Assembly (NCBI GenBank): GCA_965223265.1
Contig: OZ244999.1
Coordinates: forward strand, 5,376,001-5,440,000
DNA length: 64,000 nt
Direction of reading: 5' to 3'
Source: Planctomycetota bacterium
GTDB lineage: Bacteria; Planctomycetota; UBA8108; SXIK01
In this document: in pieces, positions 5,259 through 62,504 of the stretch
Layout: the number at the start of each line of letters is the position of its first letter
How positions within the stretch are numbered: position 1 is the stretch's first letter
Program-made: the position numbers and the translations under genes
The notes under the pieces: generated by a model
What the model saw: the letters and a program-made list of their open reading frames with translations, nothing else
Told to the model about the DNA's origin: nothing
Database searches by the model: none

Positions 5259-5271
5259 CGCAGCCTGACGA

Positions 5272-7875
5272 TCACGCCGGGGCAGTGTGGTCTGCGGGCA
5301 CCGGATCGTGTGCCGGACGATTCTCAGCGCGCCACCACGTCAGGAGTCCGGTCTCGAACTTGTTGCCGACGTCGCGACGCATCGGCAGGGCGCGCACGGC
5401 GAATCCGTGCTGCCCGGCTTCACGACACGGCACGTCGCCAACGTACACCGCAGCGTCACCGTCGAAGCCCCTAAACTCCAGGGCGATCGTCTCGATTTCG
5501 TTGAGTTCGGCGCTAGAGTCAAGTGGACCAAAAATCACTTCCACGGCAACTTCTTCCTGCGACAAGCTGCCGAGAGCGAGCTTCGCTTCGAGGGTCAAGT
5601 CCGCGCCTACTTCGAGCTCCTGCGACGAGTCGGCGTCGACCGCGAGAATCCGCACTTCATCCCAGTGATCGCGCACACGCCGCTTCCATTCCGCGATGGA
5701 GCGAGCGACGGTGTATTCGTTGTCGGCAAGGGATGCTGCTTGCAGCATCGCCGGCACGTACATCCGTTTTGTGTACTCCTGGACCATACGGTTCGTGTTG
5801 AACTGCGGCCCACAGCTGCGGATCGACTCCTTCATGCGAGCCGTCCACTCGCGCGGCACATCGTCAGGGCCGCGTTCGTAAAAGAGTGGCACAACCTCAG
5901 TTTCCAGCAGGTCGTAGAGCATTTCCGACTCGACCCAGTCCTGGTAGTCGCGATCCGCGAACTCCTCGCCGGATCCAATCGCCCAACCGTTGTTGCCGTT
6001 GTATCCCTCGCACCACCAACCATCGAGCACGCTGAGGTTGAGGCTACCATTCATCGCGGCTTTCATGCCGCTCGTGCCGCTGGCCTCGAGAGGTCGCCTC
6101 GGCGTGTTGAGCCAAACATCAACGCCCTGCACGAGATATCGCGCCACTTCGATGTCGTAGTCCTCAATGAACACGATGCGATTCTGAAATTCCTTCGTCT
6201 TTGCAAGATGGACGATCTGTCGAATGAGTTCCTTACCCGGCTGGTCCTGAGGATGCGCCTTGCCGGCAAAGATCAACTGCACAGGACGGTCTCGATCATG
6301 CAGGATACGCCCCAGTCGCTCGGTATCGCGGAAGATGAGATTGGCGCGCTTGTAGGTGGCAAATCGGCGCGCGAAACCAATCGTGAGTGCATCCGGATCG
6401 AGCGCCTCTTCGGCGAGGCTCAGCTTGGTGTGCGACGCGCCCTGGCGGCGCAGCTGTTTCCTGACACGATCGCGGGCAAAGTTCACCAGCCGCGACCGAA
6501 GAAGCTCTTTCGCCCGCCAGACCTCGTGCTCCGAGATATCGGAGACACGCAGCCAGACGCGCTGATTGACGGCGTCGTCGAGCCAACGCGGTCCGAGATA
6601 GCGCTCGAATAGTCGGCCGAACTCGTCGGAGAGCCAAGAGTGAGTGTGGACACCGTTCGTCACGTGCGAGATCGGAATCTCTTGCTCAGGAACCCGCGGC
6701 CAGATGTCCTGCCACATTCGTCGACTGATCTTGCCATGCAGAGCGCTAACGCCGTTGGCCTTAGAGGCGAGGCGCAGGGCGAGAATCGTCATACAAAAGT
6801 GCTCGTTGGCGTCCGCTGGATCTTGCCTACCTAGTGCGATGAAGTCATCCATCCGCAGCTGCAGTAGCTCGACGTATTCACCAAAGTACTTGTGAATCAA
6901 CTCGGCAGGAAAACGATCGTTGCCAGCCGGTACTGGCGTGTGGGTTGTGAACACTGTTCCAGCGGCAACGGCTTCTCGAGCCTCGTCGAAGCTTAAACTG
7001 TGCTCCTCCATGAGCACCCGCACACGCTCGAGAGCAAGAAACGCGGAGTGCCCCTCGTTCATGTGGCATACCGTGGGGTGGACACCGAGGAGAGCAAGTG
7101 CACGCAAGCCCCCGATGCCGAGGAGAATCTCCTGTCGTACACGCATGTCGAGGTCGCCGCCGTAGAGCCGGCGGGTAATCTCTCGATCCCGCGGGTCATT
7201 CGCCGGTACGTTCGAATCGAGGAGATAGACAGGCACCCTCCCAACCTGCACCTTCCAGATGCGCGCACGCACGAGCCGTTCGCCAATCTTCACTTCCACC
7301 TGCAGCTCACGCTTGTGGTCGTCGCGCACAAGAGTCATCGGCAGGTTGAAAAAGTCGTTGTCCGGATAGTGTTCCAGCTGCCAGCCGTCGGAGCTAAGGT
7401 GCTGATGGTTGTAGCCCTGAAAATAGCAGAGGCCGATTCCCACGAGCGGCAGCCCGAGCTCAGCGCAGCTCTTGATGTGATCCCCGGCGAGGACCCCGAG
7501 GCCTCCAGAGTAAACCGGCAGGCTTTCATGCAGGCCGAACTCAGCCGAGAAATACGCGATCGAAGCCGATTCGGCTGCGGCGTAGGTTTTGCGGAACCAC
7601 GTCGTCGCCTCCAAGTGCTGCTTGAGGTCAGAGTGAACCGACTCCATGTGAGCGATAAATGCTTCATCCTCGCAGAGGAGCTGCAAACGGTCCTCGCGCA
7701 GCGCCCCCAACAAGGCGATCGGGTTGTGGCCGCATTCCTCCCACAGATCGAGGTCGATCCGTCGAAAGAGGGACACCGCGTTACGATTCCACATCCACCA
7801 CAAGTTTCGCGCGATCGTCAGAAGCGGGCGCAGGCGTTCGGGAACACGGGGCACAACGGTGAATTTCTGAATCAC
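5272..7875 (-). CDS. glgP: Alpha-glucan (glycogen/maltodextrin) phosphorylase
   Basis: YFSAEFG, YSGGLGVLAGD, ARRFATYKRA, EASGTSGMKA PLP-lysine motif. Confidence 0.95.
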   Translation of the reverse strand: MIQKFTVVPRVPERLRPLLTIARNLWWMWNRNAVSLFRRIDLDLWEECGHNPIALLGALREDRLQLLCEDEAFIAHMESVHSDLKQHLEATTWFRKTYAAAESASIAYFSAEFGLHESLPVYSGGLGVLAGDHIKSCAELGLPLVGIGLCYFQGYNHQHLSSDGWQLEHYPDNDFFNLPMTLVRDDHKRELQVEVKIGERLVRARIWKVQVGRVPVYLLDSNVPANDPRDREITRRLYGGDLDMRVRQEILLGIGGLRALALLGVHPTVCHMNEGHSAFLALERVRVLMEEHSLSFDEAREAVAAGTVFTTHTPVPAGNDRFPAELIHKYFGEYVELLQLRMDDFIALGRQDPADANEHFCMTILALRLASKANGVSALHGKISRRMWQDIWPRVPEQEIPISHVTNGVHTHSWLSDEFGRLFERYLGPRWLDDAVNQRVWLRVSDISEHEVWRAKELLRSRLVNFARDRVRKQLRRQGASHTKLSLAEEALDPDALTIGFARRFATYKRANLIFRDTERLGRILHDRDRPVQLIFAGKAHPQDQPGKELIRQIVHLAKTKEFQNRIVFIEDYDIEVARYLVQGVDVWLNTPRRPLEASGTSGMKAAMNGSLNLSVLDGWWCEGYNGNNGWAIGSGEEFADRDYQDWVESEMLYDLLETEVVPLFYERGPDDVPREWTARMKESIRSCGPQFNTNRMVQEYTKRMYVPAMLQAASLADNEYTVARSIAEWKRRVRDHWDEVRILAVDADSSQELEVGADLTLEAKLALGSLSQEEVAVEVIFGPLDSSAELNEIETIALEFRGFDGDAAVYVGDVPCREAGQHGFAVRALPMRRDVGNKFETGLLTWWRAENRPAHDPVPADHTAPA

Positions 7876-10314: not shown

Positions 10315-10756
10315 GGCGAGAGCTCTGCAAGGACGTCGCCCTCGAGAACGTCTTGGTGCCTGACCGTAACGCCGCAAGCTCGACCATCTGCCATCTCGCG
10401 CCGGCCTGGCCCAGTTCGGGATTCCAAAGCCCGTGAGAGTTTTTCATCACCCCCGAGGAACGTTGTGGGGTCCAGAAGGCGCGGTCCCGCCTCTCGAGGA
10501 AAACCCCCGCCAGCCTCGCTCCTGCGCCACACTGGCGGCAAGATCGTGCCCGAGTCGCTTGTGGGTCTCGACGCCAGATGGCCGAACTCGAGCGGACTGC
10601 TTGACAGACCCTGGGTACGCACGCCATCCTCCTCAACACCACGGTAGTCGCCCGCGTTCAAGAGGCGTTCGGCACTCCAGTCTCGTCAACCTCCCTGCGG
10701 TAGGCGCCGCGAAGCGACTTCCCGGAGAGACTCACGATCGCAACGAAAGGATCACC

Positions 10757-12031
10757 ATGAAAATCCTCGTTCTCGGCTCGGGCGGCCGCGAACATGCGCT
10801 GGTGACGGCATTCGCTCGCTCGCCTCAAAAGCCGCAAGTTTTCTGCTCCCCTGGCAACGCGGGCATTCACGCCGAGGCCGACGCGCTCGAGGTCAGCCCG
10901 CACGGTGCTGTGGCGCACGGCGACCTCATCGAGGCGGCTCGTCGCGAACGGATCGACCTGACGATCGTTGGTCCCGAAGCTCCCCTAGCGGCCGGTATCG
11001 TCGACGACTTCGAATCGGCGGACCTGAGAATCTTCGGGCCGGATGCGCAGGCGGCCCAGCTCGAGGGCAGCAAATGCTTCACAAAGGAGTTCCTCGCGCG
11101 TCACGATATCCCGACCGCGGCGTTCGAGATCTTCGAGGACGCTCCGGCAGCATACGCCTACATCGAGAAACGCGGCACGCCGATCGTCGTCAAAGCGGAT
11201 GGCCTCGCCGCCGGCAAAGGGGTCGTGGTCGCTCAAGACATGGACGCGGCGTGTCAAGCCGTCGATTCCATGCTGGTCGAAGGCGACTTCGGTGACGCCG
11301 GCCGACGCGTCGTCATCGAGGACTGTCTCCGCGGCTCGGAAATTTCGCTGTTCGCGATTTGCGATGGCACCGACTACGTCCTGCTCGAGACCGCGCAGGA
11401 CTATAAGCCGATCTTCGACGGCGACCGTGGCCCGAACACCGGCGGCATGGGGACGTACTCTCCTTACTATGCCGTGCACGATCCAATCGTCGTCGAGGCG
11501 CGACGGCGCATCATCGAGCCCACGCTGGCAGGCATGCAGAAGGAAGGCCATCCGTTTCGCGGCATTCTGTACGCAGGGCTCATGCTCACCCCTTCAGGCC
11601 CACAGGTCATCGAGTTCAATGTCCGTTTCGGCGACCCAGAGGCACAGGTGATCCTGCCGCGGCTCCTGAGCGACCCGCTCGAGCTCTTCGAGCGGGCTGC
11701 CGTCGGCGAGCTCGCAGGATACGAGCCACGCTGGGATCCACGTCACAGCGTCTGCGTCATCGCGGCATCAGGCGGCTATCCAGGGAGCTACGCCAAGGGT
11801 CGCAAAATCACCGGCCTGGAGGCGATCAAAGATCCGCTGGTGAAGGTGTACCACGCGGGCACGGCGCGCGATCACGACGGCGACCTGATCACCAGCGGCG
11901 GACGCGTTCTCGGCGTCACGGCGCTCGGGGACGATCGTCAGGCCGCACGCGCTCGAGCATACGCTGCGATGGCGCACATTCAGTTCGACGGTGTGCAGTA
12001 TCGGCGCGACATTGCGAGCGGAGAGCGTTAG
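10757..12031 (+). CDS. purD: Phosphoribosylamine--glycine ligase
   Basis: MKILVLGSGGREHAL, KADGLAAGKGV, GPNTGGMG, EFNVRFGDPE; RBS aaagga before ATG 10757. Confidence 0.97.
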   Translation: MKILVLGSGGREHALVTAFARSPQKPQVFCSPGNAGIHAEADALEVSPHGAVAHGDLIEAARRERIDLTIVGPEAPLAAGIVDDFESADLRIFGPDAQAAQLEGSKCFTKEFLARHDIPTAAFEIFEDAPAAYAYIEKRGTPIVVKADGLAAGKGVVVAQDMDAACQAVDSMLVEGDFGDAGRRVVIEDCLRGSEISLFAICDGTDYVLLETAQDYKPIFDGDRGPNTGGMGTYSPYYAVHDPIVVEARRRIIEPTLAGMQKEGHPFRGILYAGLMLTPSGPQVIEFNVRFGDPEAQVILPRLLSDPLELFERAAVGELAGYEPRWDPRHSVCVIAASGGYPGSYAKGRKITGLEAIKDPLVKVYHAGTARDHDGDLITSGGRVLGVTALGDDRQAARARAYAAMAHIQFDGVQYRRDIASGER

Positions 12032-12073
12032 GTCGCCAGACGTACGTTCTGAACCAGTGACGCATCACTCGAA

Positions 12074-12108
12074 CAGAAATGCGCGTAGACCTCTGGCGCG
12101 CGTTTCTG
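12074..12108. terminator. Hairpin between convergent purD and tRNA array
   Basis: cagaaatgcgcg-N11-cgcgcgtttctg inverted repeat. Confidence 0.5.
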
Positions 12109-12119
12109 CTTTAGAGGCG

Positions 12120-12191
12120 TGACCCCACCGGGAATCGAACCCGGTCCTCCAGGTTGAAAGCCTAGCGTCCTACACAGTAGACCATGGGGCC
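12120..12191 (-). tRNA. tRNA-Glu(UUC), CCA not encoded
   Basis: ggccccatggtc...ctagg-ctttcaa-cctgg...gggttcgattccc; full cloverleaf. Confidence 0.85.
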
Positions 12192-12195
12192 ACGG

Positions 12196-12271
12196 TGGTG
12201 ACCCCGGCGAGAGTCGAACTCGCGTCTCCGGATTGAGAGTCCGGTGTTCTGACCAACTAAACTACGGGGCC
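12196..12271 (-). tRNA. tRNA-Glu(CUC)
   Basis: ccgga-ctctcaa-tccgg anticodon arm, T-loop ttcgact, CCA end. Confidence 0.92.
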
Positions 12272-12312
12272 ACGGTGAAGTCGTGTGCGCTCGCGTAGTT
12301 GCTGGTGAAAAA

Positions 12313-12387
12313 TGGCGGCGGCGGCCGGAGTCGAACCTCCGTAGCTGGGCTTATGAGGCTCAGCAGGCAACCAACAGCCTCACCGCA
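12313..12387 (-). pseudogene. Degenerate tRNA-Met(CAU), initiator-like
   Basis: Loop ctcataa, 1:72 mismatch, CCA end, but T-stem mismatched and D-arm shortened. Confidence 0.6.
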
Positions 12388-12468
12388 CCAGGGTAGAAAG
12401 CACCTACCACTCGAGAGCGCGCGTTCTGCGCTCCCGTTCATGAAACTGGAACTTGTGGAAGTGGTTCA

Positions 12469-12524
12469 TGGCCACGGCTGAGGTTTGCGGTTTACGAGAC
12501 AGCAGCTCTGTGAGCTACGCAGGC
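12469..12524 (-). pseudogene. Relic tRNA-Thr(CGU)
   Basis: gcctgcgtagctcacagagctgctgt-ctcgtaa; D-loop shortened, T-arm lost. Confidence 0.45.
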
Positions 12525-12536
12525 AAAGGAAAAGAG

Positions 12537-12613
12537 TGGTAGGGCCGGGTGGATTCGAACCACCAACAACCAGGCTCTCGACCTGGTGCCTCTGCCAGTT
12601 GGGCTACGACCCC
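12537..12613 (-). tRNA. tRNA-Leu(GAG) with short variable loop and C33
   Basis: ccagg-tcgagag-cctgg, variable region ttgtt, perfect T-arm, A73, CCA. Confidence 0.8.
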
Positions 12614-12623
12614 AGAGTGTTTC

Positions 12624-12701
12624 TGGTGGAGGTGGTGAGATTCGAACTCACACGTAACGAGATTCTAAATCTCGCGCCTCTGCCAGTTGGGCTACACCTC
12701 C
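12624..12701 (-). tRNA. tRNA-Leu(UAG) with short variable loop
   Basis: cgaga-tttagaa-tctcg, variable region ttacgt, A73, CCA. Confidence 0.88.
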
Positions 12702-12798
12702 ACGTTACTGTTCGGCGCTTGGGCTCCGGATGAGCGGCGGGATGATTGCGTGCGTACGACTCCTTTCAAGAAGGGGAAATCGACTTTTTTCGAATGAG

Positions 12799-12864
12799 TA
12801 CCCGTGGAAGGATTCACCCGCGAGGTTTTAAGCCTCGCCGCTCTGCCAGTTGGCGCACACGGGT
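12799..12864 (-). pseudogene. Degenerate tRNA-Leu(UAA)
   Basis: Acceptor, D-arm and cgagg-cttaaaa-cctcg intact; T-arm partly deleted. Confidence 0.65.
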
Positions 12865-12871
12865 ACAAAAG

Positions 12872-12945
12872 CGGTGGAGACCGGGAATCGAACCTGACAC
12901 AGGAGGTTTGCGACAGCTCCTCTCCCCCTTGGCACATGGGCCCCC
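12872..12945 (-). pseudogene. Relic tRNA, probably Cys(GCA)
   Basis: gccaag D-arm remnant, tcgcaaa loop, tcaggttcgattcccgg T-arm. Confidence 0.4.
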
Positions 12946-12953
12946 AAGTGAGA

Positions 12954-13020
12954 GTGCCCGAGGCAAGAGTCGAACGTGCAACTAGCTGGGTTTAACGAGT
13001 CTGCTACGAGCCCACACTGC
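12954..13020 (-). pseudogene. Relic tRNA, identity uncertain (Leu or Asn)
   Basis: T-arm remnant gcacgttcgactcttgc and 3' acceptor strand ctcgggca; 5' half decayed. Confidence 0.3.
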
Positions 13021-13025
13021 TTCGA

Positions 13026-13117
13026 TGGCGGAAGGCCTGGGAATCGAACCCAGAGGACCGCACGCAGTCCCACGGTTTAGCAAACCGCTCCGGCTAACCA
13101 ATATCCGGCTACCTTCC
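13026..13117 (-). tRNA. tRNA-Ser(GCU), atypical (A8, long D-loop)
   Basis: gcggt-ttgctaa-accgt, long variable arm, G73, CCA. Confidence 0.85.
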
Positions 13118-13119
13118 AA

Positions 13120-13213
13120 TGGAGGAAGGTAGAGGAGTCGAACCCCCGACGACACATGACACGCCGCCGCCCCGGTGTTCAAAACCGGTTCGCTACCACT
13201 AGCGATACCTTCC
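13120..13213 (-). tRNA. tRNA-Ser(UGA), atypical (possible 8/4 fold, U73)
   Basis: ccggt-tttgaac-accgg, long variable arm, D-arm tcgcta-gtgg-tagcga, CCA. Confidence 0.8.
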
Positions 13214-13220
13214 TTTTTCC

Positions 13221-13296
13221 TGGTTCGCCCGAGAGGACTCGAACCTCTAACCTCAGCGTTCGTAGCGCTACGCTCTTCCAGTTGAGCTACGGGCGA
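13221..13296 (-). tRNA. tRNA-Arg(ACG)
   Basis: tagcg-ctacgaa-cgctg, A20, CCA. Confidence 0.92.
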
Positions 13297-13305
13297 AGAA
13301 TTCTC

Positions 13306-13381
13306 TGGCTGGCCCGGTAGGGATCGAACCTACGACCTCCGGGTTCAAAGCCCAGCGCTCTTCCAGTTGAGCTACAGGCCA
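13306..13381 (-). tRNA. tRNA-Gln(UUG)
   Basis: ctggg-ctttgaa-cccgg, U1-A72, G73, CCA. Confidence 0.9.
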
Positions 13382-13390
13382 GCAAATACT

Positions 13391-13466
13391 TGGCACGCCC
13401 GCGAGGAGTCGAACCTCGAACCGGCGGATTTGGAATCCGCTGCGCTACCAGTTGCGCCACGGACGC
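13391..13466 (-). tRNA. tRNA-Trp(CCA)
   Basis: gcgga-ttccaaa-tccgc, G73, CCA. Confidence 0.92.
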
Positions 13467-13479
13467 ATGCACGAGCAAA

Positions 13480-13491
13480 TTGTCAAAGAAC
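13480..13491 (-). promoter_or_regulatory. boxA-like antitermination motif
   Basis: GTTCTTTGACAA on the transcribed strand just before the first intact tRNA; resembles rrn boxA. Confidence 0.55.
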
Positions 13492-13557
13492 ACGTTTCCT
13501 TCCATCACGGCGTGAGCCGCTTCGTGAAAAAGAAGAGTCACGTCGGACTCGCAAGTT

Positions 13558-13639
13558 TGGCGCAGACGCGGGGAATCGGACCCCGAGCTGCGGGATAGAC
13601 AATCCACCAAGATGCCGTTGCACCTTGCACCACGCCTCC
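13558..13639 (-). pseudogene. Degenerate tRNA-Asp(GUC)
   Basis: gga-ttgtcta-tcc arm, T-loop tccgatt, acceptor mismatch, GCCA end. Confidence 0.55.
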
Positions 13640-13710
13640 ATAGGCGCTCGTGCGACGGTGAACTCTTCAGTAGAGTCGCGGGAGAGTGAAGGTCTCGTTC
13701 TCTGGGGTCC

Positions 13711-13869
13711 CTACGACCGCAGGGAGAGAAGAGACAGGCGCCGCCTATTCCAGGACGGACAGGCGCACTGCCAGATAGCGAGACTATCGTGGCGTTCCAA
13801 GACCATGGCCGCTCTTTGGTGGGCGGCTTCGCGTGAGTGCGAATTGAGGTTGGTCTTCGGCTTGGTCAT
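13711..13869 (-). CDS. Putative 52-aa leader peptide of the tRNA array
   Basis: ATG 13869 to TAG 13711: MTKPKTNLNSHSREAAHQRAAMVLERHDSLAIWQCACPSWNRRRLSLLSLRS; stop enclosed in hairpin 13692-13735. Confidence 0.35.
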   Translation of the reverse strand: MTKPKTNLNSHSREAAHQRAAMVLERHDSLAIWQCACPSWNRRRLSLLSLRS

Positions 13870-13881
13870 GACTTAACTTAA

Positions 13882-14060
13882 CAGCCCGTTGAAAAAAGTC
13901 ATTCGGCCGAAGAAACTGGCCTCTTCACGCCCAGCTCGACCGCGTCAATACTCGCCATCAGAATCGAAAAAAGAGGGCCCGAAGATTGCCTCCGTTTGCC
14001 GCAGCCGATCTGGACGCGAAGAGACCAGTTTTCGGCTCGAAGCACTTTTTCAACAGGCTG
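13882..14060. mobile_element. MITE family A copy (179 bp)
   Basis: TIR cagcccgttgaaaaa / tttttcaacaggctg; TTAA on both flanks. Confidence 0.9.
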
Positions 14061-14115
14061 TTAATAGACGACGCTCGGGGGTCGTCTATTGCACATTTTT
14101 TGAAAAAAATTTCTT
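14061..14115 (-). promoter_or_regulatory. Putative promoter plus palindromic operator for the tRNA array
   Basis: Perfect IR aatagacgac-N8-gtcgtctatt (14063-14090); minus strand TAGACG-N16-TATTAA with upstream A/T tract. Confidence 0.55.
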
Positions 14116-14231
14116 GGGGTTTCTCTCGGGCACGACGCTGCGCGCTGTGGCGAGCCATTCCGTCTCGGGGCCAGCAAACACAGCGACCACGGACGGTGGA
14201 AGAAGACGCCAAAGCTGACGAAAGCCGCGTG

Positions 14232-15437
14232 TCAGTCCTTCGATTTCCCGCGTCGTTTCTTCTTCCCGCGCTTTTTCTTCTTGCCCTTCTTCTCGGCCTT
14301 GCCGTCCTTATCGGCTGTGGCCGCGGCCTTGCCGTCATCGCCCTCGTCTTTCTTCGCGTCACCCTTCTGGGCATCGCCGTCTGACGGTTTTGTCGCCGGC
14401 TTCTTTGCTGTATCCTCTTTTTTGGTCTCGGGGCAGGCCGACGCGAGGATCGCGGAGACAACCCGGTTCAGCGCCGCACGGTCGACGGGATCGGCGTAGC
14501 CGGCGTCAAATCCTTCGAGTTTCGCTTTCTCGCGTCTCCCATCGAACTTGAAGTCTTCTTCCTCGAGCGACTTCATGAAAGCCTCTTGGCGCTCGACGCA
14601 CGTCTTCGAAACCATGCGACCGAGTTTCAGCAGCTCAATGAACGCCTCCGACGTGTTGCGCAGCAACTGTTGACGATTCATCTGCAGCTTCAGAATGTCG
14701 TTTTGCACTTTGGCCTGCGAGGTCCGCCAGTCCAGGACTTTCCGACGCAGCTTGCGCAGGTCGACGTCGACTGCCTCTTCAGACTCTTCATCAGGCTCAA
14801 CCTCCGCCATGATCTTCGAAAAATCTTTGTAGTTGTTGATCAAGCGGTCGATGAACTTGCCGTAGACGTCGCACGCCTCCTTCACCAATTTGTCGAGTTC
14901 CTCGCGACTGCCGACAAGGAGGGGCGTGTCCCGAAATGTGAACGGCCATGGAGCGTCCTTAGTCTTGTACGCCTTTGAGATCTGACGCTTGACAGCGGCG
15001 TTCTGCTTTTTGGGGTCGAGCTCCACCTTGACGTAGTACGCGTCGATCTCCGGATCGATCGATGGATCAAGGTTGCCCCTGGGTGTCCACTCCAGCGTCA
15101 AGTTGCGCTTTTGGGCGCCGGCAACTTCGTATTCCTTCACACCACCGTCGACGAGCGCACCGCGGTTCACCAAATTGAAATCGATCTTCGCCCCAGCTGG
15201 CAGGCTCTTCGACAAGTGAAAGGTGATCTCGATCGTCGTCCGCCCTCGTCCGGTGCGCGCGATCTGCTTGACTCCCTGCAGATCGATCAGCGGCTCATAG
15301 CCGTCGTAGCTCAGCGCTTTCCGGTCCTTCTTTTTCTTGGCTTTCGCCTTCCCCTGACCTTCCGTTTGCGACGCGACGCCGAACATTAACAAACCGCACA
15401 GCGCCGCACAGACGAACCGTGAGCTCTGAGTCAGCAT
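14232..15437 (-). CDS. Hypothetical exported protein with Lys-rich tail
   Basis: About 400 aa, signal-peptide-like N-terminus, RBS gaggagg, directly downstream of the 1224-aa gene. Confidence 0.75.
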   Translation of the reverse strand: MLTQSSRFVCAALCGLLMFGVASQTEGQGKAKAKKKKDRKALSYDGYEPLIDLQGVKQIARTGRGRTTIEITFHLSKSLPAGAKIDFNLVNRGALVDGGVKEYEVAGAQKRNLTLEWTPRGNLDPSIDPEIDAYYVKVELDPKKQNAAVKRQISKAYKTKDAPWPFTFRDTPLLVGSREELDKLVKEACDVYGKFIDRLINNYKDFSKIMAEVEPDEESEEAVDVDLRKLRRKVLDWRTSQAKVQNDILKLQMNRQQLLRNTSEAFIELLKLGRMVSKTCVERQEAFMKSLEEEDFKFDGRREKAKLEGFDAGYADPVDRAALNRVVSAILASACPETKKEDTAKKPATKPSDGDAQKGDAKKDEGDDGKAAATADKDGKAEKKGKKKKRGKKKRRGKSKD

Positions 15438-15457
15438 GGAATGAGACCTCCTCGCAG

Positions 15458-18400
15458 TCACTCAACTTCTTCTTGCAAATGAATCTTAGGCGTCGGCAAA
15501 AAATACGTGAGTGTGACGTCGTCGATGACTGGCGTGGCGACGGAACCACCACTCGTGTTTCCCGTAACGCCTTTTGCGGCCTGGAATCGAAAACGGTAGC
15601 CGACTTTAACATGGTCACCCTGAACACCAGTCGCACGCCGTGCTGCCCGACGACCGGCGATGCGATTGACAGGTTCCTGCAGCTGCCACGGCTCGATGAA
15701 GCCGCCCGGGATCGTGCTGTTTCCGACCGGGAGATAGACGACTTCAGCCTGGATCTGCATATCGCTGCGTCGCAGCGGCTGAGGAATCTGCTGCGGCAAA
15801 GAATCCGTGAACATCGCCGGATAGTACGACGTCCAGTCGAACGATCGGAGCATGATCGAGTCAACGCTCGGCGGCAACGGCACGTCGAACACGTTCGCGT
15901 ATTCGCATGGACGGTTCGTGTAGTAGCCAGGCGACTGCGCCACAAGGTAGTTCTTCACACCCGGGAAGGCGCCGTCAAACACAATGAATTCGTCGATCGT
16001 GGCGTTCGCCATGAATCGCTTGACGTTGCGCTCAACCTCGACGATTCCGCCGCGCCCCTGACCAGCGCTCGTCGAGTTCGTGTACCACTTGAACAGGCCG
16101 TAGTTTGAGTCACCCTGCTCCCGGATAAACCCACCTATGTGGAGGCCATCTTTGGGTTGCCGCTCGTTCAGGCGCACCCAGGAGTTCGCCGAACCGATAT
16201 CGCCCTGCGCGTGAATCGGCCCGCCGCCGGCGCGGCTCTCCTGAAAGTCGACGTAGAGGCGCACCGAAAGATTCGGATTCTGATCGTCCCAGTCGATCGC
16301 GATGTGGTGCCACTCATGCGCCTTGAAGTGGCGAATCGGCACCATGATGTCGGTGCGCGAGATAATCTTCTGCGGATCGAGCAACTCGAGAATCGGGTTG
16401 CTCTCGTTGTCTGCGATCACCTGTGGGTAGAGCTGCGAGACGCCGTCGCCGCCTTCTCCAATCGAATGGAGAAATGCTTGGTGGTAGTACATGCGGACGA
16501 CGCGGAGCTGGCCGATCGAATTCTTGAAGATATAGAACTGAGAGCCTTCAGAGCCACTGAAGTCTGCACCGTTCTGACTGACTTCACGCACCACCTGGGT
16601 GGACGAGACCAGTCCGGAGAACACAGGGTCGTCGCCGTTGAACTCGAACTTGACCCAAAACCCAATGCCGCCGCGATAATAAGGCACGTTACCGAGCGTG
16701 TTCTGACCGCGGCTCCCAAGCCCCGAGGCGCCAACCTTGACCACACCGCTTTCCTCACGGCCAAGATCGATCCGCTGCCGTGCGGGCATCGACAGATGCC
16801 GGCTAGCGATGTGGCTGGTGCGCACGATCGACGAGTGCAGGCCGTCGGGGAAGACGTCAGTCCCCAGCACTTCCTTGTTGATCAGAGGATCTCGCGGGAT
16901 CGCCGCTTCATTGGTGTAGGCCTGATAGTTCAGCACCTCGGCGCGGCGATAGAACTTATCCATGCGGGCGCCAAAACGTGAGAAGGGGGCGTCAAAGAGG
17001 TCACGCAGCGCGTCGGTAAACTCCTCGGTGAAGAGGCTTGTGCTGCCGCCCTGCTTGACGCGGCGAAGACGGCTGAGGGACTGCGATGGACGAGAGTCGA
17101 AACCATTCGTCACCGTGATCGACGGGTGCGATGCACGATATGTCTGCGGCCGACTCAAATAGGCGCCTTCCATGCGGCGGCCGTCCAAAAGCCCTGCCAC
17201 CTCGATGCGCCCATCGCGCACGCTTCCCGCAGTCACCAGTTCTGTCAAAGCTTCCATCGGTTCTGGCCAGGTGACGACATTTTTGCGGTTGTTGACGCTG
17301 GAAAGCGCGCCGACACCCTGGAACGTCTTTTCGAAGTGGTACTGGTTCGTGTGCCGGAGGACTCCATACGTCTGCACGACCGTACGAACGCGGCGCTCGA
17401 ACGGACGTCGAAACGGCACCGGCATGCCAAGCTGTCCCCGCCCTCTCGACGAAGTCGTGGTCGAGCTCTGCGCCGTGCGATCGGAGATGGGCCCGATCTG
17501 TCCCAAGCTGGTGATTTCGTAGTACCCCATGGAGTCGAAAGCGAACTCCGTGGTGTTGCCTTTGAACAGATTGAAGTTGTCCTGCGCCCAGACCAAGTCG
17601 GACTTGTCCACCGGCACGTACACCGCAGCGTTTGGGTTGTAGCGATTGATGCGCGTGTTGGGATTGAAGTTCGCTTTGAGGACGCCTTTGACGAGCTCGT
17701 AGTACCATGCGTTCTGATCGTGAAACCCGATCCCCGCCTGGCGGTACGTGCCGCGCGTGCTGCCAACATCGGTCCCCTTGATCCAGAGGCGCCCGACGGG
17801 GCTTGTGGCGCCGCCCGACACCAAAGCGCGTTTGATCTGCTGGTTGTTCGGCTGGTCCGGGTCGATCACGAGAGCGTTGGTCGGCGATGGAAAAAAGCTC
17901 GTCTCCAGGAGATCGACGAAATCTTCGAATCCTTGACGCCCCTGGTCGTTCGTCCGCCAAGCCATGAACGGCCGGATCTTTCGCCGCACGATGATTTGCT
18001 CCGCCAGTCGCTTTGCATGCTGGTATTCCAGCCGCGGGCTGTAGACGAAAATCGCCCGCGGCAGCACGCTGCCAACCTCCTCCTGCGCGGTGAGGCGACG
18101 ACCTAGGATCTGCGCCCCGGCATCGACCTGCGGCGCCATTGTCGCGTTGATGCCAGCACCACCCCCGAGGAACGAGAAGGGAAAAACGCGCCGCCCCGCA
18201 AGTCCTTGCAGACAAGCAATCAGCACCTCTTCGGGTGCGGTGTTGAGGTTGACCGGATACCGCGGCTGTCGCTCCATGCGCGGCTGAGCCGACGCCGGCG
18301 GCTGAGACTGCTGGGCGCTGCTACCACCCAGCCCGCCCGTCGAACCGAGAAGCTCCGGCACCTCGTTGAGACCATCAAGCGGCCCGAACACGTCACTGTC

Positions 18401-32586: not shown

Positions 32587-32763
32587 AGCCTGTTGAAAAA
32601 GTGCTTCGAGCCGAAAACTGGTCTCTTCGCGTCCGGATCGGCTGCGGCAAACGGAGGCAATCTTCGGGCCCTCTTTTTTCGATTCTGATGGCGAGTATTG
32701 ACGCGGTCGAGCTGGGCGTGAAGAGGCCAGTTTCTTCGGCCGAATGACTTTTTCAACGGGCTG
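32587..32763. mobile_element. MITE family A copy, inverted relative to 13882
   Basis: agcctgttgaaaaa...tttttcaacgggctg; near-identical reverse complement of 13882-14060. Confidence 0.9.
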
Positions 32764-62282: not shown

Positions 62283-62321
62283 CGTGATCGACACAGTCCT
62301 CCTTGCTGGGCCTCCGGTGAA

Positions 62322-62501
62322 CAGCCCGCCTGAAAAAGTCATTCGGCCGAGAAAACTGGCCTCTTCACGCCCAGACGGGCCGCGTCAATACTCGCCATCA
62401 GAATCGAAAGAAGAGGGCCCGAAGATTGCCTGCGTTTGCCGCGGCCGACCTGGACGCGAAGAGACCAGTTTACGGCTCGAAGCACTTTTTCAGGCAGGCT
62501 G
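62322..62501. mobile_element. MITE family A copy (180 bp)
   Basis: cagcccgcctgaaaaa...tttttcaggcaggctg; abuts family B copy via TTA. Confidence 0.9.
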
Positions 62502-62504
62502 TTA

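Follow-up and report, generated by a model that had tools for sequence, protein, structure and literature searches.

The 64,000-nucleotide (nt) stretch of contig OZ244999.1 analysed here (the window; positions 5,376,001 to 5,440,000) belongs to the genome of a Planctomycetota bacterium, complete on one contig of 9.18 Mb, with 60.8% GC and a single rRNA (rrn) operon, and called G000 where it has to be told apart from its relatives. On its minus strand, at 12119-13639 (coordinates are window positions unless marked as genome positions), lies a compact array of nine intact and six decayed tRNA genes. ARAGORN recognizes the intact genes at 12119-13466, in the array order Trp(CCA), Gln(TTG), Arg(ACG), Ser(TGA), Ser(GCT), Leu(TAG), Leu(GAG), Glu(CTC), and Glu(TTC), that is, nine genes within 1.35 kb or about 6.7 per kb. 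Seven of the nine score 50-73 bits with the Rfam tRNA model; tRNA-Ser(TGA) reaches 31.9 bits, and the only Rfam match of tRNA-Ser(GCT) is to the tRNA-Sec model, at 38 bits and under threshold. Lowering the Rfam threshold over the region to E ≤ 10 returned tRNA-type matches and noise and nothing else. The 3'-terminal CCA is encoded by eight of the nine intact genes, the sole exception being Glu(TTC).

An earlier note, made from the letters of this DNA alone, had described the locus as a candidate regulated tRNA-rescue operon of about 15 tRNA-like genes, and both the number and the order of the genes hold, with the nine ARAGORN calls and six relics scoring above shuffled sequences. For each relic, the best local match among 1336 tRNAs was compared with those of 20 shuffles. 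All six scored 35-43 against a shuffle maximum of 27-29, the amino acid of the best match being the one named in the note, and six non-tRNA control segments of the region stayed at the level of the shuffles. With a relaxed threshold, ARAGORN also calls three of the six relics, namely the Asp site (labelled Thr), Met, and Leu(TAA). The Asp relic, which heads the array, is homologous to the first tRNA of an array in the related planctomycete G005 (82% identity over 39 nt to the G005 tRNA-Asp). The array is partly decayed. The leader region was also considered as a source of further decayed tRNAs, which was ruled out by shuffle-level scores.

The sequence immediately ahead of tRNA-Trp, on the transcribed strand, had been termed boxA-like in the note and turns out to be identical at 17 of 17 positions to the boxA of the host 16S leader. 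The pattern TG[TC]TCTTTGA[AC]AA occurs three times in the 9.18 Mb, both strands counted: one copy begins 241 nt ahead of the only 16S gene, another lies in the 16S-23S spacer, 166 nt ahead of the 23S gene, and the third is at the head of the array. The reversed control pattern has no site in the genome, and the base composition predicts 0.28 boxA sites per genome and 1.2e-5 in the array leader. Furthermore, a NusB domain is encoded in the genome and relatives use the same boxA word, G005 carrying TGTTCTTTGACAA about 470 nt after its 16S gene. Because of its full identity to the host rrn boxA and its mere three sites genome-wide, the motif is best read as a true rrn-type boxA, an assignment made from sequence and the strongest result of this analysis. 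The presence of a word identical to the host's own where about 1e-5 copies are expected points to selection in the host or to a recent copy from the host. Since related planctomycete arrays are without this word, it was presumably not simply inherited along with the array.

Examination of the gene content and surroundings of the array indicates that it is redundant and foreign to its site. Each of its nine anticodons has exactly one further copy elsewhere among the 60 tRNAs of the genome; the array is thus spare, and the check proposed in the note, whether these are the only copies of the isoacceptors, fails to refute its proposal. The array copies share 63-77% identity with the housekeeping isoacceptors and 74-83% with the best external array or viral tRNA. 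The two flanking genes, purD and a gene for a 409-residue protein, are adjacent without any array in five of five relatives, with a gap of 25-700 bp in the convergent cases, so that the 2.2 kb between them in this genome represent an insertion. Fifteen open reading frames (ORFs) of the window, all within 1814-29658, were compared with Pfam: the matches are all housekeeping (purD, UbiA, recA, phosphorylase, ParA, and Lon) and three ORFs have no match. As the note had stated, no integrase or phage gene flanks the array, none being found among these 15 ORFs or within about 10 kb of it, and genes for HNH, RtcB, or similar linked proteins were likewise not found among the ORFs compared.

The two intact tRNA-Leu genes are informative as to the origin of the array. 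They measure 77-78 nt, compared with 84-89 nt for the host's own Leu tRNAs. For Escherichia coli LeuRS, A73 and the Leu-type D loop, both present here, matter and the long arm does not (PMC9976931, in its accessible text). The short-arm type also occurs in the arrays of G005, G021, and others. When a D-arm pattern, GTAGCCCAA..GGCAGAGGC, was used to fetch loci with short tRNA-Leu (119 from IMG/VR and 120 from genomes), short tRNAs of this type turned up in nearly every locus; 116 short Leu or Leu-like tRNAs were counted across the IMG/VR loci and 109 across the genome loci thus fetched, many of them in arrays of 10-38 tRNAs that include cyanobacterial L-arrays. The sharing of this tRNA-Leu type with phage arrays and cyanobacterial L-arrays places the array in the phage / L-array pool of Santamaria-Gomez et al. 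(PMC8421152). As a family, tRNAs with a Leu anticodon, 73-79 nt, a short arm, A73, and the D arm just given are widespread in IMG/VR phage contigs, in cellular arrays, and as single genes, many of these in Actinomycetota; a literature search on class I tRNA-Leu did not find a published description of them. Metagenomes gave no match to the Trp-Gln junction pattern, and one contig matched the Ser-pair pattern, ending at the Ser pair and containing no boxA-like word.

Taken together, these observations make it probable that a supernumerary array of the phage / L-array kind arrived here by horizontal transfer, came to lie between purD and a conserved neighbor, has partly decayed, and is provided with an rrn-type boxA that would make the polymerase Rho-resistant. 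RNA polymerase would enter the array from upstream, either by read-through from the upstream same-strand operon or from an unrecognised promoter. The boxA RNA would then recruit the Nus factors, NusB/NusE among them, in the manner of the rRNA operon, the Nus-modified polymerase would resist Rho and cross the 1.35-kb untranslated array, and the normal processing enzymes would cut the transcript into tRNAs. Long arrays produce untranslated transcripts of one to several kilobases that should be easy targets for Rho, and their full-length transcription is not addressed in the L-array literature consulted (PMC8421152, accessible text). A host-matched boxA, present here and in three of four further cellular arrays from two other phyla, would be a concrete and testable answer, and the complete genome, single rrn operon, and exactly three boxA sites make this organism a clean test case. 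The features of the region are gathered in Table 1.

Table 1. Features of the region between and including the genes flanking the tRNA array (window positions)
Feature	Position	Strand	Basis
purD, flanking gene	10433..12031	+	Pfam
Stable hairpin between the array end and convergent purD	12072..12110	both	folding z score -2.5 (minus), -3.6 (plus)
tRNA-Glu(CTC) and tRNA-Glu(TTC)	12119..12271	-	ARAGORN, Rfam
Met relic	about 12389-12310	-	local match, relaxed ARAGORN
Thr relic	12536-12460	-	local match
tRNA-Leu(TAG) and tRNA-Leu(GAG), short variable arm (class I), A73, Leu-type D loop	12537..12701	-	ARAGORN, Rfam
Sole sigma-70-like site of the region, TTGAAA-16-AATCAT, ending 40 nt before Leu(TAG)	12742..12769	-	1 found versus 0.4 expected
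Leu(TAA) relic	about 12869-12773	-	local match, relaxed ARAGORN
Cys relic	12949-12870	-	local match
Leu-like relic	13025-12950	-	local match
Trp(CCA), Gln(TTG), Arg(ACG), Ser(TGA), Ser(GCT), all intact, spacers 2-9 nt	13026..13466	-	ARAGORN, Rfam
boxA TGTTCTTTGACAATTTG, ending 9 nt before tRNA-Trp	13476..13492	-	identity to host 16S-leader boxA
Long-range helix 13668-13650 / 13545-13532 around the Asp relic, followed by UUUUU at 13531-13527	13522..13668	-	folding z score -2.6, 1/200 shuffles
Decayed tRNA-Asp(GTC), 7-bp D-arm duplication, weakened anticodon stem	~13645-13555 (gene 13639-13558)	-	local match, relaxed ARAGORN, direct reading
Hairpin with the last ORF codons and TAG stop in its stem, no U tract after it	13692..13735	-	81-nt fold, z score -3.4, 2/200 shuffles as good
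52-codon ORF, MTKPK...WNRRRLSLLSLRS*	13711..13869	-	ORF call
MITE, ~183 bp, 34-nt terminal inverted repeats, between palindrome and ORF	about 13880..14064		blastn, repeat search
Palindrome AATAGACGAC-N8-GTCGTCTATT, perfect 10-bp inverted repeat, 8-nt spacer	14063-14090		exact repeat
A/T tract CAAGAAATTTTTTTCAAAAAATGTG next to the palindrome	14092..14116	-	direct reading; no sigma-70-like promoter detected
Gene for a 409-residue protein, no Pfam family, upstream of the array, conserved purD neighbor	14232..15461	-	Pfam, synteny

The array was compared with seven others: those of the planctomycetes G005 (19 tRNAs), G009 (17 tRNAs), and G021, and those of Cylindrospermum, Microcoleus, Asanoa, and Actinokineospora, each of these four being set against its own rrn operons, the arrays of other phyla having been reached through the tRNA-Leu pattern and picked by hand. 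In this hand-picked set, a boxA of the host type heads, or lies within, four of the eight cellular arrays, in three phyla. In Cylindrospermum NIES-4074, the exact rrn boxA, GAACCTTGAAAAC, stands 86 nt before the first tRNA (Asp); in Microcoleus, boxA with one mismatch is found 136 nt before the first tRNA, again Asp; in Asanoa, TTTGAGAACTCCACAG is located between tRNA 1 and tRNA 2, and the corresponding 16-mer pattern has three sites in the genome, of which the rrn leader and the array account for one each. The array of Actinokineospora has no boxA, all six genome copies being in rrn operons. Concerning the three related planctomycete arrays, the conservation that the note had proposed to look for is not there, the palindrome, leader ORF, and boxA not being kept in any of them; the host-type boxA recurs in the other phyla.

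The Cylindrospermum array head merits a description of its own. Within the 450 nt before the first tRNA are found a TTGACA, two copies of TGTAGTAT, which is the published type of TrcR site (PMC10272220, accessible text), a 64-codon ORF, a short hairpin, boxA, and tRNA-Asp. The 13-mer boxA of this cyanobacterium has 13 genome copies, of which four are not in rrn operons, and at most one of those four is that of the array. A scan of 54 fetched arrays for boxA with one mismatch gave 34 same-strand and 18 opposite-strand matches, a count that is uninformative because many one-mismatch matches are promoter words of the TTGACA type.

Our literature search did not find any published link of boxA to tRNA operons, arrays, or clusters, the lone co-occurrence being the BOXA1R PCR primer. 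The accessible text of the L-array paper (PMC8421152) does not contain boxA, antitermination, terminator, leader, or Rho as words, and that of PMC4758250 contains neither boxA nor antitermination. Baniulyte et al. (PMC5725501) sought boxA before protein genes only and excluded non-coding RNAs, and the word tRNA is never used in the accessible text of that study. What is new here would be the wiring of an L-type array to the host rrn boxA, supernumerary arrays themselves being already known.

Upstream of boxA, the 52-codon ORF with a hairpin over its stop, as reported in the note, is present (folding z score of the hairpin, -3.4). Twelve of its final 13 codons specify Trp, Arg, Leu, or Ser, and six of 44,836 ORF tails are as extreme. 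With a correction for where the window is placed and how long it is, 240 of 33,466 control ORFs (0.7%) match the run of Trp/Gln/Arg/Ser/Leu/Glu codons, and when the amino acids of the relics are added to the set, 2256 of 33,466 (6.7%) are as extreme. Third codon positions of the ORF have its highest GC content (0.75), a pattern shared with genuine genes of the genome, and direct reading reveals no Shine-Dalgarno sequence before its ATG. The Trp/Arg/Leu/Ser run is also the CU-rich arm of the hairpin, which itself favors Leu and Ser codons. In constrained folds, a ribosome masking either the Arg codons or the stop of the ORF left unchanged the downstream helix and the U tract after it, the only U tract present, so that these folds give no switch. 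The leader contains one pair of direct repeats only, of 9 nt and part of the hairpins. Compared with 21 genomes of the order, the leader DNA (13467-13880) matches nothing but the Asp tRNA of G005, and neither the leader nor the ORF has a homologue in the rest of the genome or in 239 fetched loci.

Two other devices were considered for this segment and rejected: the local hairpin at 13550-13535 as a stand-alone terminator, which is unstable (z score 0.07), and Rho loading at C-rich RNA following the ORF, for which a C/G ratio of 1.6 at 13740-13663 (about the 95th genome percentile) is too weak. A 12-mer, CTGCGGTCGTAG, is common to the array heads of G000 (13713-13724) and G005 (about 6866-6877 of its array locus), in both cases at a hairpin apex upstream of Asp. 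The base pair beneath it differs on both sides, C-G versus G-C, and an ORF stops within the hairpin in both arrays; the G005 hairpin has a z score of -1.4. This 12-mer is several times commoner in this genome than a random one, and given its fair frequency the sharing could be due to chance (estimated at about 0.02-0.05). Judging from its sequence features, the ORF with its stop-codon hairpin could be a translation-sensing leader, which we hold as a minority reading and a doubtful one. A bolder proposition, according to which spare (L-type) arrays would generally be tied to rRNA antitermination via a host-matched boxA, and the codon-matched leader ORF ending in a hairpin would here also gate entry by the decoding of Trp, Arg, Leu, and Ser codons, appears to us rather unlikely. 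If true, such translation-sensing control of tRNA supply would be so far undescribed in print.

Further upstream, the note had seen an inserted miniature inverted-repeat transposable element (MITE), and this is borne out by 34-nt terminal inverted repeats and by 498 blastn matches genome-wide at E ≤ 1e-3, among them 184 near-full copies at E ≤ 1e-20. In four public runs (two samples from one study), contigs with flat depth confirm the sequence and break at the MITE, where the depth rises several hundred-fold. The termini of the family read TA(G/A)CAGCC...GGCTG(T/C)TA, and two more copies lie in the window at about 32587-32763 and 62320-62504 (genome 5408587 and 5438504).

The note had also described a promoter, with an A/T tract, overlapped by a perfect palindrome acting as operator. 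The palindrome and the A/T tract are indeed present; the promoter was not found, no sigma-70-like site of at least 8/12 lying on the minus strand at 13467-14300. The hairpin formed by the palindrome is stable on both strands (z scores -4.4 and -4.8, with 0/200 shuffles folding as well) and is followed on the plus strand by CACATTTTTT, a run of six T that makes it terminator-like. The palindrome has no second copy in the genome, where its half-site shows no enrichment either. Its left arm adjoins the end of the MITE, and these ten bases, ATAGACGACG, also flank another copy of the MITE at genome 391836-392024 (at 392015). An operator at this place finds no support, given that no overlapping promoter was found and that neither further copies of the palindrome nor an enrichment of half-sites are seen; a terminator hairpin is more likely. 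A TrcR-type TGTAGTAT site was not found at the locus. Many housekeeping tRNA genes of the genome have TTGACA-16/17-TAnnAT just upstream. The single sigma-70-like site of the region, within the array, is possibly an internal promoter, and the hairpin between the array and purD is, from its predicted fold, likely a terminator for the array, for purD, or for both.

Several side observations concern other tRNA genes. Beyond the window, tRNA-Cys(GCA) is called at genome 5637533-5637604 and again at 5645785-5645861, the two sharing the same 3' half; the former is 72 nt long with an aberrant 5' half and looks like a partial duplicate. The odd ARAGORN calls Thr(CGT) at genome 1384907 and Arg(TCG) at 5678809 look like false positives. 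In the G005 array (L013, G005:C199), the minus strand at 6246-6478, between Asp and Trp, carries a tRNA-Tyr(GUA)-like gene with acceptor, anticodon, and T arms and a multi-hairpin insertion of about 165 nt in place of the variable arm (z score -7.5), for which there is no ARAGORN or Rfam call. The same array contains, at 5271-5346 on the minus strand, a tRNA with the anticodon CTA (amber-suppressor type), labelled Pyl by ARAGORN.

A number of these results weigh against a foreign array protected from Rho by boxA. The array is without a detected promoter, and the helix and U tract located upstream of boxA could stop transcripts short of it. Host-type boxA is absent from four of the eight arrays compared (G005, G009, G021, and Actinokineospora), and the other four do not amount to an unbiased rate as the arrays were hand-picked via the tRNA-Leu pattern. 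Finally, with six dead tRNA units out of 15 and a MITE upstream of the array, the whole locus could be drifting without function. Pushed to its end, this last point yields a dead relic of an old transfer, with no useful transcription and a boxA that is a leftover or a chance match. The decayed units, the MITE, and the missing promoter would fit such a relic, as would the one tRNA without an encoded CCA, the subthreshold score of tRNA-Ser(GCT), and the absence of the array from five of five syntenic relatives. However, seven of nine intact genes keep scores of 50-73 bits and eight of nine their CCA, and a boxA matching the host's own at 17 of 17 positions, with about 1e-5 expected by chance, is hard to reconcile with a chance match, just as its absence from related arrays is with simple inheritance. 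We therefore regard a dead relic as improbable.

A richer proposal, that of the note, is a silent rescue operon controlled at three levels: by a repressor that binds the palindrome over the promoter, by attenuation that senses ribosomes through the leader ORF and its hairpin, and by boxA antitermination. It can draw on a real boxA, on a leader ORF whose codon run is equalled by 240 of 33,466 control ORFs, whose GC peaks at the third position (0.75), and whose stop falls within a stable hairpin, on the helix and U tract downstream of this ORF, and on the combination of a repressor site with boxA in a cyanobacterial L-array (Cylindrospermum, with its TTGACA, two TGTAGTAT, 64-codon ORF, and boxA). 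The repression part, on the other hand, meets with a palindrome at which no promoter was found, which has a single genome copy next to the MITE end, looks like a terminator on the other strand, and is separated from the ORF by about 180 bp of MITE, and with the lack of a TrcR-type site. The attenuation part is confronted with a stop-codon hairpin without U tract, a downstream helix unchanged by the masking ribosome, a codon statistic that drops to 2256 of 33,466 with the relic amino acids, and an ORF and leader without homologue in the 21 genomes of the order, the genome itself, or the 239 loci. The boxA word of this scheme stands, the operator is unsupported, and attenuation is left weak with no ribosome-dependent switch; the threefold control as a whole seems to us unlikely. 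A last possibility is that boxA serves folding and processing, the Nus complex keeping the tRNA precursor tethered to the polymerase by its 5' end and aiding its co-transcriptional folding and cutting, as proposed for 16S rRNA; a chaperone role is stated for the rrn Nus complex in the accessible text of PMC10250234. The position of boxA directly before the first intact tRNA and the helix round the Asp relic just upstream, reminiscent of the leader-trailer helices of rRNA precursors, would suit this role. However, no helix bracketing the whole array was found, and nothing sets this role apart from protection against Rho, with which it can coexist; as an explanation in its own right, it is very improbable. 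A redundant, horizontally acquired array with an rrn-type boxA ahead of it is the reading that we retain.

Leader-peptide attenuators such as trpL, hisL, and leuL and the Rho-dependent tnaC have a short upstream ORF with regulatory codons and an RNA structure at the end of the ORF. The present leader resembles them by a codon run that matches amino acids of the downstream genes and by the structure at the end of its ORF, but differs by the absence of an ORF-coupled terminator/antiterminator pair, of a U tract, and of conservation, and by having tRNA genes as targets. As to the boxA of rrn leaders and spacers, on which the Nus complex assembles (PMC5725501, PMC4807359, and PMC10250234, accessible texts), the likeness resides in the same word, which in both cases is on the transcribed strand and precedes a structured RNA that is long and not translated. 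Here, however, the word heads a stand-alone tRNA array without a mapped promoter or an established boxB/boxC context.

Phage tRNA clusters (PMC6409571, accessible text) share with the array the tRNA-Leu with a short variable arm, present across the IMG/VR loci that its pattern fetched and often part of a large array there, and this type of tRNA-Leu may be a handy marker for finding such arrays. The present array differs from phage clusters by its conserved host flanks and by the absence of phage genes within about 10 kb. With the tRNA array units of Tran et al. (2016), it has in common a high density, redundancy, and occurrence in few organisms per phylum, including Planctomycetes (PMC4758250, accessible text). 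These units are defined there by at least 20 genes at a density of at least two per kb; the density of the array is well within this definition, whereas its number of genes, nine or 15 with the relics, is below it.

The closest parallel is with the L-arrays, exemplified by the trn operon of Anabaena sp. PCC 7120, for which Planctomycetes are among the carrier phyla (Santamaria-Gomez et al. 2021, PMC8421152; this and the following statements refer to its accessible text). L-arrays are characterised as runs of tRNA genes on one strand with little DNA between them, longer than gene accretion would produce, and as silent in standard conditions until translational stress induces them. Like them, the array is a dense, non-periodic, supernumerary tRNA cluster that adds no new anticodons, with a patchy distribution pointing to horizontal transfer and with some pseudogenes. 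All nine of its anticodons are supernumerary, it is patchy and foreign to its site, and the L-array paper gives no fixed minimum gene number. Moreover, the arrays of G005, Cylindrospermum, and Microcoleus all begin with Asp(GTC), which in decayed form is also the first unit here. The differences reside in size (26-43 genes there, nine intact genes or 15 units here), in the lack here of TGTAGTAT-type repeats over a promoter and of any promoter found, in a chromosomal location between housekeeping genes with no linked HNH, RtcB, or similar gene, and in boxA, a word that does not appear in PMC8421152. This last difference suggests that a foreign array may have been wired into the circuits of its host by a route other than the TrcR repressor of Anabaena.

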